Shown: positions 1 through 7,608, counted from the stretch's first letter. The stretch is DNA of 64,000 nucleotides from Candidatus Micrarchaeota archaeon (GCA_038046805.1 JBBSVO010000001.1:453-64452); one strand, 5' to 3'. Numbers and translations: made by a program. The notes: a model not told the origin generated them from the letters alone.

Positions 1-540
1 GCCATTGGTTACGAGGAAGATGCTACGGACTTCACGATTTTTTTTCAGTGCCGCAATCATTTCCGGAAGATATGGATAAATCGTAGGCTCACCTGAAAGG
101 GAAATTGCCCAATGAGAAGGAAATTTGGAAAAAGATATGTCAAATAAAGCGCGGTTTGCATCATGTGCCCCGCCAATCCCGCTCATGATTTTCTTGCGCG
201 CAGCAACACAACCTGAGATTATTTCCTCTGGCGAATCCGCCTCTTTCTTTTTCATTTTTGCAAACCGCATCCATTCCATTGGTCGCCAGCAGAACGTGCA
301 ATTTTCCTGGCACCATGCAAGAGCAGGACTCATCTGGCAGCAGCGATGGCAATCGATTCCATAGAATTTTTGTTTGTAGCAGACACCTTTTCCGCGCAAT
401 GCCTTTCTTGTCCATGTGCAGATTTGGACTCCTGAATGATTTCCGGCAAAGCCATACGTTGCCGAGGCAAATTTTTTCCGTGCGGTGTCACTGAGAACTA
501 GTTTTTTATTTGAACTTTGAGTTGAAGAAGCGGAATTCAA
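1..540 (-). CDS. taw1: 4-demethylwyosine synthase (Taw1/TYW1, radical SAM), runs off the left edge
   Basis: Manual translation (not in ORF track): TTG start at 540 after AGGTGA; HSGVQICTWT..CYKQKFYGIDCHRCCQMSP..WCQENCTFCWRP (CxxxCxxC)..AISLSGEPTIYP..FLVTNG. Confidence 0.92.
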   Translation of the reverse strand, partial: MNSASSTQSSNKKLVLSDTARKKFASATYGFAGNHSGVQICTWTRKALRGKGVCYKQKFYGIDCHRCCQMSPALAWCQENCTFCWRPMEWMRFAKMKKKEADSPEEIISGCVAARKKIMSGIGGAHDANRALFDISFSKFPSHWAISLSGEPTIYPYLPEMIAALKKNREVRSIFLVTNG

Positions 541-555
541 GATATATCACCTGTT

Positions 556-1425
556 TTATCTTACTGGCAGTGTCGCAGTCTGTTCATGCTGACGATACGC
601 TTCGCGAAGCGCGGCTGTAAAATTTATCGCCCTGCCGGAGTTTATTTCAGAGCGTATTTCATAATGCAGATGCGTCGGAGATTTGCTTCTGCGCTCTAAA
701 CCGGTGCGCGCTACATCTCCAATGCGTGTGCCTGCAGATACGAACTGCCCTGTGCGAACAGACATGTTACCCATGTGCATATAATGGTGGTATAACCCCG
801 CATGGTCATGAATAACTACATAGTTTCCGCCCTTTCCGCCAGGATCTCTATCTACTTTTACAATTTCTCCGGAAGTTGAAGAATAAACTGGGGTTCCGCC
901 ACGACAGGAGATATCTATGCCACGATGACTATGGGCAGGAACAACTTCTCCGCCTGTAGTAGTGTATTCCTCACGCGTTGCCCCAAAATTATACGCTGGT
1001 TTATGGCCTAAAATAGGTGGATGTTCAAGAACAAATGGCGAGGAGATCGATTTTCTAGTAACAGTTGCCTTGCCAGGCTCAATAATAGCAGGCATTATAA
1101 CTGGAATTAGTTTTGGAAGCGGCTTGAGAAGACCAGAAGTATTGGCACTTGCAAATGCACGAATAGTTTCAAGTGACAAAATGCCATTTGGATTTAGGAT
1201 TATCGCTTTGCCATGTTCGTCTTTCATGCCAAGGTCATTTATTTTCTCTTGCATAAGTTGAACCGCAAGACGCATGTGTGAACCAGATTTCTCTTCAGAT
1301 ATTGGACGACAGATGATAACCCCAGTGTCAATCATTCTATTGAGAAATCCGCGAAGCTGGCTAAACTGTTCTGGAGTAAGCTCAGGCTCTGCGTCATGTT
1401 TTGGTTTTCCCATAGTATGATCCAC
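556..1425 (-). CDS. M23 family metallo-endopeptidase with probable N-terminal peptidoglycan-binding domain
   Basis: HRGIDI (HxxxD), GGNYVVIHD, YMHM, PTHLHYEIR (HxH); N-terminal VQLMQEKINDLG..NPNGILSLETIRAF resembles PG_binding_1. Confidence 0.88.
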   Translation of the reverse strand: MDHTMGKPKHDAEPELTPEQFSQLRGFLNRMIDTGVIICRPISEEKSGSHMRLAVQLMQEKINDLGMKDEHGKAIILNPNGILSLETIRAFASANTSGLLKPLPKLIPVIMPAIIEPGKATVTRKSISSPFVLEHPPILGHKPAYNFGATREEYTTTGGEVVPAHSHRGIDISCRGGTPVYSSTSGEIVKVDRDPGGKGGNYVVIHDHAGLYHHYMHMGNMSVRTGQFVSAGTRIGDVARTGLERRSKSPTHLHYEIRSEINSGRAINFTAALREAYRQHEQTATLPVR

Positions 1426-1507
1426 CCATCGTTTAATTTAAACTTTACATTTACATTAATGTTTACTTATGATAACTTTATAATCCCTTCCTCAGATAAA
1501 TGATTAT

Positions 1508-2221
1508 ATGAAAGTTGCGCAGCTTTTTATACCAAAACCTAGGCCCGAGAATGCCACACAAATTGCAACCAGGATATTCCGCTCGGAAAAGGCAATATGC
1601 ACAAGTTGTGCGCAGTGTTGCAAGGGAACAAAAAGCATTGGAATCCACAGCAAAGAACCAGAATATGAGGGATTACTCGCCTTGGCAAGAGAACATGGAG
1701 CAACTGCAACAACTGCACTAGATGGAACTGCATTGGTTTTCCCGGACGATACGTGCGTTTTCCTGCATGAAATACCGGGCGCCGGCATAACCACGCTTCA
1801 AATATGCGAGATTCATAAGAAACCGATAAAACCCTGGGTGTGCACAATATTTCCATTTATTATGAAAGATTTGGCGACTGCCGACGGAACCGTGCGAACG
1901 GTTGTAGCACTGACCGCATCATGCCCTCCGGTTGCAGAACTTGTTGCTGCTGGAATAAACTGGCTGGAGCCAAGGGAATGCGTTACCTATGAAGAGCGCG
2001 AATTCAAAAAAGGAGTAACTTATTTCGTTCCAGTATCGCACATCCCGCTTCTTGGCGATGCATTATGGCCACTTATAAAATTTGGCAATGACGGGCATTC
2101 AATACTCGTACTGATGAGCGGAAAATCTGAGATAAATGGCTATTTTCTGAAAGACCGTGATGGAAGGAGTATTATACCTATTATTGAAAATTCGCCACTG
2201 AGAAAGCCGATTGATTTCTGA
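1508..2221 (+). CDS. YkgJ/CxxCxxCC family cysteine-cluster protein
   Basis: CTSCAQCC, CVFL, CEIHKKPIKPWVCTIFPF. Confidence 0.75.
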   Translation: MKVAQLFIPKPRPENATQIATRIFRSEKAICTSCAQCCKGTKSIGIHSKEPEYEGLLALAREHGATATTALDGTALVFPDDTCVFLHEIPGAGITTLQICEIHKKPIKPWVCTIFPFIMKDLATADGTVRTVVALTASCPPVAELVAAGINWLEPRECVTYEEREFKKGVTYFVPVSHIPLLGDALWPLIKFGNDGHSILVLMSGKSEINGYFLKDRDGRSIIPIIENSPLRKPIDF

Positions 2222-2867: not shown

Positions 2868-3812
2868 CTACGACAACTTAATAAACCCCTCAACCATTTC
2901 CTTTATCCCATCCTTTAGTGGTCGAGGATTGAATCCAAGCGATTTCTTTGCTTTATCAGAATTAAAGACCCGGTCACTGGCAAGAATCAAAATATGTTCG
3001 GTGGTAACCTTTGGCTTTGTTTTTGAAAGCATTGCCTTTGATTGCTCAAACTGCGCGAACATCAGTGCGAAATCAAGCGGAACAAAATCAGATGGCGCTG
3101 AAACCCCGAGAAATTCCGCGGCAATGGAAAGAAGTTCCTGTTGTTTTAACGATTCTCCGCAAACAACGTAGATTCCAGGACTGACTTTACGCACATCCAA
3201 CGCGCCGGCCACTGCCTTTGCTACGTCCGAGACATGAACAAATGGGACGCGGTTCTGCCCATGACCAATGATTTTCATTGAACCATTTTTGATTTGGGAA
3301 AGAATCATGTTGTAATCGCTAAAACCAGGACCATAAATTGTTCCTATTCGCAAGACAACAGAGTTCGGATTGGAATCAGAAATGATTTTTTCAGCTTCAA
3401 GCTTTGTTGCTGCATAGGGAGAATCTGGATTTATCGGAGTATTCTCATCTGCAGGAACAACGCGGATTAACTTACCGTACACGGAAATGGAACTCGCAAA
3501 AACAATGCGCGCGGATTTCGGAGTTGCAGAAACAAGACGGCGAGTGAGCTCGACATTTGCAACCTTAAGCTCGACTGGATCAAGAAAATTCATTGAACCT
3601 GCGAGATGTATGATCGCACTGGCATCGCCAAGTATTTTTACCAAACTTTCTGAACTAAAATCAGTTATTATTTCGTTTTTTAATCCGCATTTTACCCTAA
3701 CTAATGGAATCGCTGCTGGAAGAAGCCTCAGGACTTCTTTTCCCAGTCTCCCGGTTGCCCCGGTCAAATAGATTTTGCCTGTTTCCGGTTTGTTGGTTCT
3801 TCCTTTCGCCAT
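2868..3812 (-). CDS. NAD-dependent epimerase/dehydratase (extended SDR)
   Basis: IYLTGATGRLG, IIHLAG, ASSISVYG, YAATK (YxxxK); start taken at MAKGRT (3812). Confidence 0.88.
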   Translation of the reverse strand: MAKGRTNKPETGKIYLTGATGRLGKEVLRLLPAAIPLVRVKCGLKNEIITDFSSESLVKILGDASAIIHLAGSMNFLDPVELKVANVELTRRLVSATPKSARIVFASSISVYGKLIRVVPADENTPINPDSPYAATKLEAEKIISDSNPNSVVLRIGTIYGPGFSDYNMILSQIKNGSMKIIGHGQNRVPFVHVSDVAKAVAGALDVRKVSPGIYVVCGESLKQQELLSIAAEFLGVSAPSDFVPLDFALMFAQFEQSKAMLSKTKPKVTTEHILILASDRVFNSDKAKKSLGFNPRPLKDGIKEMVEGFIKLS

Positions 3813-6800
3813 AATTATAGGATATGGATTGCAGTTTTTTAAATTGCGGCTTTTCAGAACTTCCTTTGCCAAAACCACCCCTGTTGCGGAACAGATAGAT
3901 TAGAATTACACCTATAACAAAAGTTGCGGAAAGCGCGAGAACAATCATGCCTTGGGATTTGTCAGTTCCTGTTTCAGATTCTGCAAGGGAAACGAGCGCA
4001 CTTTCAGTTTTAAGGGCCTTAACATAGTCTCCTTTTTCGATATAGTTCGATGCCTTTGCCATTCCCTGGTTGAATTTCTTCAGAGTTTGTTCACTCCATG
4101 AACCAAATTTGGAGGATTTCAATGCATTCAGCTGGGAGTATTCGCTATTCGCACGGCTTGAAAGGAACAAAATGGTTTCGTTCATTTTTGAGAATGATTC
4201 ATCAAGCGAACCTAGTGCTGAATGCAAATCCGAAGCTGTCGCTGCTTTCTTAGCAAGCTCTTTCTGCAATGCAGATGGATCAACCTTAAATGCCCAGGAG
4301 AATGTAGATGTTTTTCCTTCTGCGTATTCTTTTGAATAGTGCTCTAGAATTTCGGAAATAGATGATTTGACTGTATCTAGTTGTGATAAAAGTGATGCCT
4401 TTACGCCCTCCATTTCATTTTCCTTTTTCATAACTACGTCGCGTACAGAAGACAATGTCCCAAGCAGGTTGATAGCATCTGAAAGAGAGCCACTCCCCTC
4501 AAATATAGCAGAAGATTTTTCAAAATCAGGGAATTCTTTTGGAAGCCCAGATACAGACGATGCATTTGAAAGCAGGATGTATTTGTCTTTTAGCTTGCGG
4601 AATTCTGATTCGGCATCATTGAACTGTGCGGACATCTGTTTGCCAAGCCACTTCTTATCTAGTTTGGAAAGAGCATCTTCGGCCTGTTCGTTGGTCATGT
4701 TCGAAACTGAAAAGAGCGCGCTTTCAAGAACTGATTTTCTTGCCTGAAGTTTTGAAAGGAACTGACTATCCGTAGTTTCATTCAGGCTCATGAATTCCGA
4801 ACCGGATACAACACCATTTATTTCATCCTTTTCCAAAGCCAGTTCACGCACGAGCTTTGATACGGACGAGGAAAGTGCTGACGATGAGACCTCGCTCAGA
4901 AGAGATGAGACACGCTTTTGCTCTAGAAGGGAAATTGCAGATAAGGTATCGTTTCCTGCGAGTTTTGAGGAAACCATCGCCGCATCGGTTGAGTTTAATT
5001 TTGAAAGAACCGAAAGCTGCTCGGCCACATACTCCTTGGAATTATCAACAGCATACTTAACGCGGATTTTGGTTGCCTTGTTTTTCTTAAGGAAAAGGAC
5101 GTCAAAGCCAAACAGGCCATTGCCAAGCTCGCGCTTGTTTTCAATTGCCTCTCCAGTGTAGGCAAATAGAACAAACGACTTTACGTGGTCGCTCCAGTTA
5201 CCATTTACGATTAGGGTTGCGCGGTCAATATCCAATTTAGGAATTATTGAAAGATCATAGCTTACTTCCGAAGATGTGCCCTCGGCCTTTACGCTGAAAT
5301 TACCAGATTCTGTGGAAAAGGCATTCGTGGCTGATGAAACTGACCTGAGTATGTGCGGACCTTTTTCGAGTAGTTTTGAGCCGCCTCGCAATTCAAGGCC
5401 ATCGATGTAAACTTCGCTGGTAGATTCCGATGCAGATTCGTATGCAAAACGACCATTGACCAGCAGATTGAAGGTTGTTGTTTCCTCAATCTGCGCAGTG
5501 GCATCTGATTGTGCAACTATGCTGGCGGACTTTTTCGAGGTGTATGCTAGAACTGCTTTTTTTCCGATTCCAAACTGGATTGTTTCATAAGCAGATATAT
5601 TTTTCAGGACAATTTCCATTCCGTTTGTCTGTAAAAGAGTTATTTTGCTTTCGCCAGATGAAGAAGAAAACAGGGAAGCATCCGCAAAATCAATAGAGGA
5701 TGAAAGTGGAATGCGCACATTTTCCGCTGAGAAGCCGGTCGGATTGTGGACCGTAGCACTAATAGTCGCATTTACAAGTTCGTCGAGAATAATCGGGCTG
5801 AAATATTCACTGGAGGAAACAACCAGGTTTGATTCTACGATTTTGTGTGAAGAGGAGAATATTTTCTCGCTGATGTATGAATACTTTGATTCGATTTGCG
5901 CGAGTTTTCCTATGCTATCAGGATAGACGAGCGTTCCGTCCTTGTAAAACGCCCCGGATTCCACTGAAGACATGTCAAATATCAGATCCCCAAGAAACTC
6001 TGAACCAAGAGAAACCTGGTAAAGAAGCTCCGCACGCTCTTGTTCCAGAGCACCATATTGCAAGCGGGCTTTTTCAATAATTGACTCGCGAAGCTCGGAA
6101 ACAAGCGCCACTGCCCAATCCGCACCTGAAAGCACGTCACTCTTAATTACAGAGAGCATTTTCTTTTCGTATTCTACATCAATTGAATCCTTCTGCGCAT
6201 TTTTCAGAAGCAGAGAAAGGGATTCCGCTTCTGCACCCGCATCTGCCTCCTTTTCTGCGGAAACTGTTGTGAGTTTATTCCTTGCCGAACGTGCAAGCGA
6301 AGCGGATTTATCATAAAAAACGAATTTTTTTCCGAGAGTAGTTGCAGCATCACCACTTGAGAGTGCAAGAGTGGCATTTACATAAAGTGAGCGGGCGATT
6401 GAATTTGCAGGATGACCTGATGCAGCAGACTCAAATGACGAAATTTCCATTTCTGCTTCCTCCCGTGCCATGGAAACTACTTTTTCCGAATCCACAGACA
6501 GGATTTCAGAATCATTTGAAATCGCACCGAAAAGTTCTGCCGAATCCCTGAGAAAATGAATCGAATTTTTCAAATATCCAATCTTTTTGGATGATAAAAA
6601 GAAATCTGCCTGCGCAGCCATGGCTTCTGCTTTTTTCTGCGCATCCTTCAGCATGGAAAGCCGGTATGAAACAGTATATGCCTGCGCCTCGCTGAATACA
6701 CTTGATTTTACAGGGGCGGAAATCAAATGCACGTCCTGGCCGTCTAGTTTCGCCAATGAAGAGGATATTAAGGATCGCACCTGAAGCAGTGACGATTTAA

Positions 6801-7608
6801 GGGCAGTATGTTCCGCAAAACTGTTTTGAGTGGCGTTGAGCATCAGAGAACGCAGGAAGATTGAGTCTGCAAGAGAACCATCTGGTTTCCAGACAAGATT
6901 CACCATTTCATCAGAAGCGGACAGATTCGGAACAGCCATATAGACGGCTTTTTTCAATTTGGAAACAAGGGCGGCGGCTTTATCGTGTTCGGAAAGATCT
7001 CCGGTTGAAACCCCGGAAAATGCAGGAACTATTGTATCGCAGGAACTGGAAGAAGAACCGTAAAAATCAACATCACAGATTCCGAGATAATCCAATTCAG
7101 CAAAATCCTTTTTTGCCAAAAGCCAGGCAGAATCTGAAAGCTCTGCACTCCTGCCAAGCAAAAGAACTGCGTTAGTCATTGTGTTCTTCCAATAATAGCC
7201 ATAGCTTGCACATTCCGAAAAGGAATGGGAAAACAATTCTTTTGCAAAGAACTGGGCTATTTGGGAGTTAAACACCGGGAAGCCACCGGCAGATGGGTTT
7301 CCTGAAACAGTGGAAAGAACAGAATTGCACTGCACAATGGAATTATCGCTCTTATTTTTCCATTCGAGTGCGGAAATTAGATAATCCCTTGATTTATCGT
7401 CATAAATATCTCCTGCACCTTCAAATGAAAGCGTGATTGATGAAATTGATGCGTGCATTGCATTGAAATCCCAGATAGAAACCCCGAAAACATTGAAAAT
7501 ATGCGGATTGTTGCTTCCCCAGACTGCAGTTTCCCAAGGGGTATCTATGGACGCGGAAAACGCAGAAACAGACAGTGCTGACAGAATGAAGAAAACCAGA
7601 ATTCGCAT
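3697..7608 (-). CDS. large secreted, C-terminally membrane-anchored protein
   Basis: 1303-aa ORF; N-terminal signal peptide, helical Ala/Ser/Leu-rich segments, beta-rich middle, TM helix (MIVLALSATFVIGVILIYLF) followed by basic tail. Confidence 0.8.
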   Translation of the reverse strand: MRILVFFILSALSVSAFSASIDTPWETAVWGSNNPHIFNVFGVSIWDFNAMHASISSITLSFEGAGDIYDDKSRDYLISALEWKNKSDNSIVQCNSVLSTVSGNPSAGGFPVFNSQIAQFFAKELFSHSFSECASYGYYWKNTMTNAVLLLGRSAELSDSAWLLAKKDFAELDYLGICDVDFYGSSSSSCDTIVPAFSGVSTGDLSEHDKAAALVSKLKKAVYMAVPNLSASDEMVNLVWKPDGSLADSIFLRSLMLNATQNSFAEHTALKSSLLQVRSLISSSLAKLDGQDVHLISAPVKSSVFSEAQAYTVSYRLSMLKDAQKKAEAMAAQADFFLSSKKIGYLKNSIHFLRDSAELFGAISNDSEILSVDSEKVVSMAREEAEMEISSFESAASGHPANSIARSLYVNATLALSSGDAATTLGKKFVFYDKSASLARSARNKLTTVSAEKEADAGAEAESLSLLLKNAQKDSIDVEYEKKMLSVIKSDVLSGADWAVALVSELRESIIEKARLQYGALEQERAELLYQVSLGSEFLGDLIFDMSSVESGAFYKDGTLVYPDSIGKLAQIESKYSYISEKIFSSSHKIVESNLVVSSSEYFSPIILDELVNATISATVHNPTGFSAENVRIPLSSSIDFADASLFSSSSGESKITLLQTNGMEIVLKNISAYETIQFGIGKKAVLAYTSKKSASIVAQSDATAQIEETTTFNLLVNGRFAYESASESTSEVYIDGLELRGGSKLLEKGPHILRSVSSATNAFSTESGNFSVKAEGTSSEVSYDLSIIPKLDIDRATLIVNGNWSDHVKSFVLFAYTGEAIENKRELGNGLFGFDVLFLKKNKATKIRVKYAVDNSKEYVAEQLSVLSKLNSTDAAMVSSKLAGNDTLSAISLLEQKRVSSLLSEVSSSALSSSVSKLVRELALEKDEINGVVSGSEFMSLNETTDSQFLSKLQARKSVLESALFSVSNMTNEQAEDALSKLDKKWLGKQMSAQFNDAESEFRKLKDKYILLSNASSVSGLPKEFPDFEKSSAIFEGSGSLSDAINLLGTLSSVRDVVMKKENEMEGVKASLLSQLDTVKSSISEILEHYSKEYAEGKTSTFSWAFKVDPSALQKELAKKAATASDLHSALGSLDESFSKMNETILFLSSRANSEYSQLNALKSSKFGSWSEQTLKKFNQGMAKASNYIEKGDYVKALKTESALVSLAESETGTDKSQGMIVLALSATFVIGVILIYLFRNRGGFGKGSSEKPQFKKLQSISYNYGERKNQQTGNRQNLFDRGNRETGKRSPEASSSSDSIS

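Follow-up and report, generated by a model that had tools for sequence, protein, structure and literature searches.

An M23 metallopeptidase encoded in a Micrarchaeota genome carries a divergent PG_binding_1-like domain at its N-terminus, and both this two-domain architecture and the archaeal origin of the gene can be assigned with high confidence. We lean slightly towards reading the protein as a PG_binding_1 plus M23B endopeptidase of a native groundwater Micrarchaeota that acts on bacterial murein and is made without a classical export signal. The gene lies in a 64,000-nt stretch of DNA (hereafter the window), which corresponds to C1:453-64452 of a 1,200,822-base, 16-contig genome of the Micrarchaeota (DPANN) with 86% completeness and 0% contamination. 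No tRNA or Rfam elements were detected in the window.

The positions of the gene, its domains and its neighbours are given in Table 1. The database copy of the protein is identical to the translated open reading frame but begins at M5, which corresponds to the ATG at 1413-1411, and has 285 amino acids. Because the database copy begins there and the TATA-like box TTTAAATT is located about 25 nt upstream, we take this ATG as the likely true start, giving a protein of 285 amino acids. The position of the box, as read by eye, suggests a leaderless or short-leader archaeal transcript of the gene. One contig of 204 nt in a metatranscriptome library is an exact match to window positions 1344-1547; it covers the 5' end of the M23 gene, the entire divergent intergenic region and the start of the CxxCxxCC gene. 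As carried-over DNA would look alike, we discarded this contig as proof of M23 transcription; DNA carry-over, read-through and antisense RNA would all be possible sources.

Table 1. Features of the M23 locus, with positions counted from the first nucleotide of the window.
Feature	Window position	Strand	Residues	Remarks
TYW1 radical-SAM enzyme (archaeal tRNA wyosine pathway)	1..540	-		15 bp downstream of the M23 gene; cut by the window edge; TIGR03972, E 1.2e-54
M23 open reading frame	556..1425	-		289 aa from GTG 1425; stop codon 556-558
M23 (LytM/lysostaphin-type) metallopeptidase domain	622..1050	-	~126-268	
HxH motif (HLH)	664..672	-	H252-L-H254	Read directly from the sequence
Conserved catalytic histidine column (YMHM)	775..777	-	H217	Invariant in both alignments
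HxxxD motif (HRGID)	913..927	-	H167-R-G-I-D171	Read directly from the sequence
Proline-rich, length-variable linker	1051..1137	-	97-125	From alignments
Divergent PG_binding_1-like three-helix domain	1138..1377	-	~17-96	From hhalign, AF2 and VIA-align
N-domain loop 2			80-87	NGILSLET; N-G-x5-T retained
N-domain insertion			67-79	13 residues
N-domain loop 1			44-52	EEKSGSHMR, degenerate; DGKYGDET / DGKYGxET in relatives
TATA-like box	1434..1441	-		About 25 nt upstream of ATG 1413
CxxCxxCC zinc/iron-chelating domain protein	1508..2221	+		Divergent upstream neighbour; Pfam PF03692, 24.9 bits

The C-terminal half of the protein was recognised by the Pfam model Peptidase_M23 (PF01551) at residues 166-260 (window 646-930) with 82.6 bits (cut-off 28.7; E 2.3e-23), in agreement with the original prediction, which had been made from the DNA sequence alone and had named the motifs HRGID and HLH as intact. 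Both motifs were confirmed at residues 167-171 and 252-254. Moreover, H167, D171, H217, H252 and H254 are invariant in an alignment of six sequences, bacterial M23 proteins among them, as well as in an alignment of the four family members, and the motif columns of the query coincide with those of ShyA and a phage protein. By analogy, H167 and D171 would act as Zn ligands, and the catalytic residues would have counterparts in LytM. A profile of the family matched 39 PDB sequences at E<=10, including a phage internal protein (1.5e-15), ShyA (6.3e-15), LytM (4.6e-12) and lysostaphin (9.4e-10). Judged from the sequence, the M23 catalytic apparatus looks complete. The 13 NCBIfam matches (MepM, ShyA, NlpD and others) all fall within the M23 domain and stay far under the equivalog cut-offs, so that membership of the MepM, ShyA, NlpD or DipM equivalogs is not indicated (best score: MepM, 55.1 bits vs 341). 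Matches to PHROGs were found at the level of the M23 domain only (best 65.9 bits) and add nothing to the Pfam result. A full-length AF2 model with an MSA of three sequences, run on the M23 beta-sheet fold, reached a pLDDT of 33.9 and was set aside as unusable.

The N-terminal part is far less conspicuous. The segment AVQLMQEKINDLG..NPNGILSLETIRAF, in which the original prediction had seen a probable PG-binding domain, is present at residues 54-91. Pfam PG_binding_1 (PF01471, cut-off 23 bits) did not support this assignment directly: there was no match, even at E<=10, for the query, for its N-terminal 150 residues or for the two closest homologs P0002 and P0003. A weak match was obtained for the more distant homolog P0007 (15.0 bits, E 0.028), and the best score in a scan of the genome, 13.9 bits, belonged to a different gene. 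In a phmmer search of residues 1-150 against 1.84 billion representatives only P0002 was found, and an ESM Atlas feature search with residues 1-135 was uninformative (best score 0.76). At the level of the single sequence, the domain thus looks like an orphan.

Profiles built from relatives within the phylum gave a clearer picture. The family profile, searched over 401 phylum genomes, matched other proteins by the N-domain only. Three such N-domain-only proteins (genomes G044, G355 and G162) show the pattern G-x-x-V-x-x-Q...DGKYGxET...DGYFGIET, score just below the Pfam cut-off of 23 bits on PF01471 (21.0, 13.4 and 14.7 bits), and one of them is matched by the query in BLASTP with an E-value of 2e-7. 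A profile of six N-domain sequences had matches in 18 of the 401 genomes at E<=1e-3, and 9 of 21 additional ORFs taken from these matches passed the Pfam cut-off for PG_binding_1. We then have a reference set of eight domains from the same phylum, each of them above that cut-off, against which the N-termini of three family members aligned in hhalign over 64 columns (97.8%, E 8.2e-13). With the profile of this reference set, 13 sequences are matched at E<=0.01, with solved PG-binding domains among them (those of SleC, SleB, 1lbu, phiKZ gp144 and an L,D-transpeptidase). Searched directly against PDB sequences, the six-sequence profile gave nothing significant, with the PG-binding domain of an endolysin at 0.045; its top match, a ParM fusion (0.0015), was judged to be spurious.

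The structural analysis points in the same direction. An AF2 model of residues 1-105 (25-row MSA) folds into a three-helix bundle (helices 18-34, 49-65 and 85-96) with a pLDDT of 77.2 and a pTM of 0.64, a model that is not independent of the sequence result, as its MSA was made of PG_binding_1-like sequences. Modelling was confined to these 105 residues; a combined MSA of 49 rows placed N-domain fragments onto the M23 domain and was dropped. That the N-terminus models as a PG-binding domain is supported by this fold and by an exhaustive VIA-align comparison; Foldseek against the PDB returned no match at E<=1e-3 (SleC at ranks 2-4, probability 0.44-0.63). The top 13 rows of VIA-align (Z 7.8-5.4, where values below 8 count as middling by the tool's own note) are SleC, SleB, AP3 endolysin, proMMP-2 (two entries), CtpB, SltB3, 5tv7, 4xxt, 1lbu, 4lpq, proMMP-9 and phiKZ gp144, all of which, judged by the chain titles and the families concerned, contain a PG_binding_1-type domain.

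The segment singled out in the original prediction therefore does belong to a PG_binding_1-like domain according to hhalign and AF2, but this domain is wider (residues ~17-96) and the register has to be shifted: in the hhalign alignment, residues 54-91 correspond to helix 2, loop 2 and helix 3. The weak Pfam match of P0007 follows the register assumed before (helix 1, loop 1, helix 2), and both registers look plausible because the fold is internally pseudo-repeated. The DG-x-x-G-x-x-T loop motifs of PG_binding_1 are not preserved as such, since the first loop is degenerate and the second one keeps N-G-x5-T. By sequence comparison and modelling, residues ~17-96 represent a divergent domain of the PG_binding_1 fold with a 13-residue insertion and a degenerate first loop. 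Given the state of this DGxxGxxT-type loop, binding of murein by the N-domain may be weakened or lost. The linker between both domains also varies within the family, with an insertion of about 35 residues in P0003.

A word-indexed search of 5.8 billion proteins returned six proteins at E<=1e-3 among 1425 candidates. Three of these make up the family, namely the window's own protein, P0002 (72% identity) and P0003 (66%), and the other three are bacterial-type M23 proteins that share 34-38% identity with the query across one third of its length. P0002 is encoded in a genome of the same genus (G001, UBA10214 record) and annotated as 'M23 family metallopeptidase [Candidatus Micrarchaeota archaeon]'. 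P0007, a protein of 345 amino acids from another Micrarchaeota MAG, is a distant fourth full-length member (30% identity over 274 columns, E 3e-29). When the search was restricted to the catalytic domain, the nearest bacterial M23 domains, which belong to MepM-like coiled-coil M23 proteins, were 34-42% identical (12 proteins at E<=10 among 125 candidates). Of 61 genomes of close relatives, 11 have M23 domains, and in the phylum as a whole the count was 50 among 401 genomes sampled (E<=1e-5).

In a quick maximum-likelihood tree of 43 M23 domains (134 columns; L026 and L034, two short M23 matches, were left out), the four family members group together with an SH-aLRT of 92. The family sits in a weakly supported cluster (85) with eight other Micrarchaeota M23 domains and apart from most of the bacterial rows from databases; these rows had been picked by similarity to the query, and 22 of the 40 inner branches are unresolved. 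The tree argues against a recent transfer and names no donor. A chimeric contig, which had been put forward as an outcome that would overturn the original prediction, was not found at this site: the gene order CxxCxxCC - M23 - TYW1 is common to the window and G001, and contigs of separate, independent groundwater studies span the TYW1/M23 junction (294-745) as well as the M23/CxxCxxCC junction (1245-1517 and 1396-2094) without any difference. Since the GC content at the M23 gene is also unremarkable, with no compositional anomaly, we rejected the interpretation as chimera or contaminant.

The organism itself appears, from its gene content, not to make murein. The only match to Mur_ligase_M in the genome is FolC (TIGR01499, 367.7 bits), and PBP transpeptidase, SLT, Amidase_2 and YkuD_2 domains were not found in the assembly, which is 86% complete. 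This fits the earlier assumption that archaea of this type lack peptidoglycan. The M23 gene is the sole PF01551 match in the genome.

The protein shows no signal peptide, hydrophobic N-terminus, twin-arginine motif or TM-like segment. Its N-terminus is polar, and the highest 19-residue Kyte-Doolittle mean (1.35) falls into the proline-rich linker and is not TM-like. The whole open frame comprises 293 amino acids, with just four in-frame codons upstream of the GTG, so that a hidden signal peptide would not fit in. The initial impression that a classical signal peptide is missing was thus correct. The same is true for most relatives of the N-domain: 20 of the 21 PG_binding_1-like proteins of the phylum that were examined, including the query, have no hydrophobic N-terminus. 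We also reconstructed 28 other Micrarchaeota M23 ORFs, none of which contains a PG_binding_1-like domain (local HMM, E<=0.01). The N-terminus was within the locus for 16 of them and is strongly hydrophobic in seven. The phylum thus has apparently secreted M23 proteins as well as this signal-less fused form. A contractile-injection sheath (PF04984) was not found in the genome (86% complete). Some M23 domains of the phylum lie inside giant open frames of 2,425 aa (L023, G152) and 2,907 aa (L024, G158), others in frames of about 860-1,090 aa; the giant ones may represent giant surface proteins with a lytic module.

In the model that we favour, the divergent PG_binding_1 three-helix bundle (residues ~17-96) would most likely dock the enzyme on murein, and the M23B zinc endopeptidase domain (residues ~126-268) would cut peptide cross-links or stem peptides of bacterial peptidoglycan. 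Such cutting might serve to attack or scavenge the walls of bacteria that live nearby or act as hosts. With neither a Sec nor a Tat signal, the enzyme would have to get to its substrate in another way, for example by lysis, vesicles or cell-cell contact. Judging from the sequence, a function in peptidoglycan attack hangs about evenly in the balance; the substrate, the extracellular action and the ecological role are suggested by family membership. Support for this model comes from two fusion proteins of the same phylum that contain the PG_binding_1-like module. In one, it is joined to a YkuD_2 L,D-transpeptidase domain (L061:781-1827:-, G355; 197.8 bits); the other has Amidase_2, an N-acetylmuramoyl-L-alanine amidase domain, in that place (L071:928-2196:-, G371; 118.4 bits). 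The module thus travels with murein-active catalytic domains, which seem to recur across the phylum.

A different reading would place the peptidase inside the cell or on a substrate other than murein. It might process imported muropeptides or oligopeptides for amino-acid scavenging, glycine-rich peptides, or a protein of the archaeal envelope or of a host, with the N-domain binding a different ligand. We consider this fairly unlikely. The lack of a signal peptide, TM segment and sheath gene, together with the 20 of 21 relatives without a hydrophobic N-terminus, fits an intracellular role or another ligand equally well, and the degenerate loop 1 points the same way. The fold is also shared with the pro-domains of matrix metalloproteinases (VIA-align ranks 4, 6 and 12), for which murein binding is not known. 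On the other hand, the module co-occurs in the phylum with the murein-specific YkuD_2 and Amidase_2 domains, the catalytic residues of the M23 domain are all of the murein-hydrolase type, and 68% of the archaeal PG hydrolases in a published survey also have no recognised signal peptide (Strock et al., 2025; PMC12352652).

The metalloproteinase pro-domains suggest yet another role, in which the N-domain would mainly keep the enzyme latent as a pro-domain, covering the M23 active site until activation instead of anchoring the protein to the wall. Comparable are the MMP pro-domain, zymogenic SleC and the N-terminal region by which LytM is occluded. Among the structures, zymogenic SleC indeed matches best (Z 7.8), proMMP-2 and proMMP-9 occupy the ranks mentioned above, Cys39 is conserved in three close family members and the murein-binding loop is degenerate. 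However, Cys39 is missing from P0007 and the full-length AF2 run (pLDDT 33.9) gave no inter-domain model, so that we regard a predominantly masking function as quite improbable; it does not exclude docking on murein. It is extremely improbable that the protein lacks catalytic activity and serves as an M23 regulator like EnvC/NlpD: the weak partial matches to NlpD and ActS models would agree with it, but all metal-binding and catalytic histidines as well as the aspartate are present and invariant, and no amidase partner was found in the genome. Just as improbable, and largely refuted, is an origin from contaminating bacteria, from a chimeric assembly or by recent transfer of the gene from a bacterium or phage. 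The gene lies about 1 kb from the contig end and its M23 domain has matches among phage virion proteins and lysis proteins as well, but the archaeal TYW1 lies further towards the contig end in an order kept in G001, both junctions are spanned by independent contigs, identity to the closest bacterial M23 domains is just 34-42%, and the tree groups the family (SH-aLRT 92) within the weak cluster (85) that it forms with eight other Micrarchaeota M23 domains. Docking on, and cleavage of, bacterial murein remains our preferred interpretation.

Several further proteins were noted during the analysis. The window's genome encodes a second protein with the N-domain module (G000:C3:46213-46356 (-), E 1.5e-8), a 307-aa open frame (L062:928-1848:-) with an ortholog in G001 (L067:1369-2208:+); the rest of this protein matches no Pfam, NCBIfam or PHROG model, and its N-terminus is not hydrophobic. 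In G044, G355 and G162, a conserved family of 341-379 aa (L040:802-1827:-, L041:843-1958:- and L042:1066-2205:+) combines a near-canonical PG_binding_1 domain with a following K/E-rich region, has no signal peptide and, at two of these three loci, is the neighbour of a multi-pass membrane protein that is conserved. Within the window, positions 3697-7608 (-) encode a serine-rich protein of 1,303 aa whose N-terminus (MRILVFFILSALSVSAFSA) resembles a signal peptide and whose C-terminus holds a TM-like segment. No Pfam family scored above its cut-off on this protein, which is probably a surface or S-layer-type protein. The 3' end of its ORF overlaps the 5' end of an NAD-dependent epimerase ORF on the same strand (2868-3878) by up to 182 nt (3697-3878). 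As the Pfam match of the epimerase starts at residue 36, an overlap of at least about 75 nt remains, or the start is mis-called.

Cultured Micrarchaeota have wall-less archaea as hosts, a point against the murein model, and the accepted view is that members of this phylum associate with such archaea only. A broader and, in our estimation, improbable scenario would be that the Micrarchaeota possess a lineage-wide, largely Pfam-invisible PG_binding_1-like module on M23, YkuD_2, Amidase_2 and many uncharacterised proteins, nearly all without signal peptides, and that some groundwater members physically meet bacteria, as prey or as cross-domain hosts, and deliver wall-remodelling enzymes to them by a non-classical, contact-dependent route. 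If the enzyme described here is active on murein, the Micrarchaeota would join the archaea that carry hydrolases against bacteria or for wall scavenging, which until now come mainly from Halobacteriales, Nanoarchaeota/Woesearchaeota and Thermoplasmatota. As its binding domain was found only by profile-profile or structural comparison, screens that need a Pfam-recognised binding module under-count such enzymes. The missing signal peptides in the query and its relatives in the phylum turn effector export in DPANN archaea into a testable question. In practical terms the gain is modest: a lysin candidate that is small and compact and belongs to a lineage not yet in culture.

Archaeal PG hydrolases, including proteins that combine M23 and PG_binding_1, and an M23B peptidase of the Micrarchaeota are already published (PMC12352652; PMC8561730). 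Compared with these reports our additions are modest: a binding domain that is cryptic, its occurrence across the phylum alongside other domains active on murein, and a systematic absence of export signals. In the survey of Strock et al. (2025; PMC12352652), 175 of 3,706 archaeal genomes encode modular PG hydrolases, among them proteins with M23 and PG_binding_1 from Halobacteriales and M23 from four Nanoarchaeia; signal peptides are reported for only 32% of the hydrolases, and killing activity is demonstrated for one. Neither the main text of that study, with regard to Micrarchaeota, nor the supplement files searched (possibly without the S2 Table), with regard to Micrarchaeota and Micrarchaeia, contains a mention of this lineage. 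Its definition of a modular PG hydrolase calls for a catalytic and a binding Pfam domain detected by HMMER; in the query only PF01551 is recognised, so that it would have escaped this screen. Further reports concern murein transglycosylases of the GH23 type from Woesearchaeota (Vigneron et al., 2022; PMC9723730) and an extracellular lysostaphin-like M23B peptidase in the Micrarchaeota MAG 'Ca. Norongarragalina meridionalis', possibly directed against bacterial walls (Vazquez-Campos et al., 2021; PMC8561730). A full-text literature search found no paper that joins Micrarchaeota, peptidoglycan and M23, and among the papers listed for Micrarchaeota and peptidoglycan, judged by title or the start of the abstract, none was on this subject.

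Among the known systems, Woldo (PMC12352652) resembles the query as an archaeal protein of the M23 plus PG_binding_1 type with patchy distribution in organisms without murein. In Woldo, however, the M23 domain comes first and is followed by two canonical PG_binding_1 domains, and the protein has a Tat signal, whereas the query has one Pfam-invisible domain before M23 and no signal peptide; the host lineages also differ (Halobacteriales vs Micrarchaeota). The M23B peptidase of 'Ca. Norongarragalina meridionalis' (PMC8561730), compared here by its description only, stems from the same phylum and is called extracellular, in contrast to the query with its additional N-terminal domain and lacking export signal. 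With LytM, lysostaphin, MepM and ShyA the query shares a catalytic domain with HxxxD, H and HxH motifs, but targeting domains (coiled-coil, LysM or SH3b) and a signal peptide are missing from it, and its nearest bacterial domains reach only 34-42% identity. Finally, the three-helix bundle of the N-domain is shared with the PG_binding_1 domains of SleC/SleB, the Streptomyces DD-peptidase 1lbu and phiKZ gp144/AP3 (Z 5.4-7.8). From these it differs in the 13-residue insertion before the last helix, in the loss of the first DGxxGxxT-like loop and in being unscored by the Pfam model, and it is linked to SleC, SleB, 1lbu and phiKZ gp144 by sequence profile through its relatives in the phylum.
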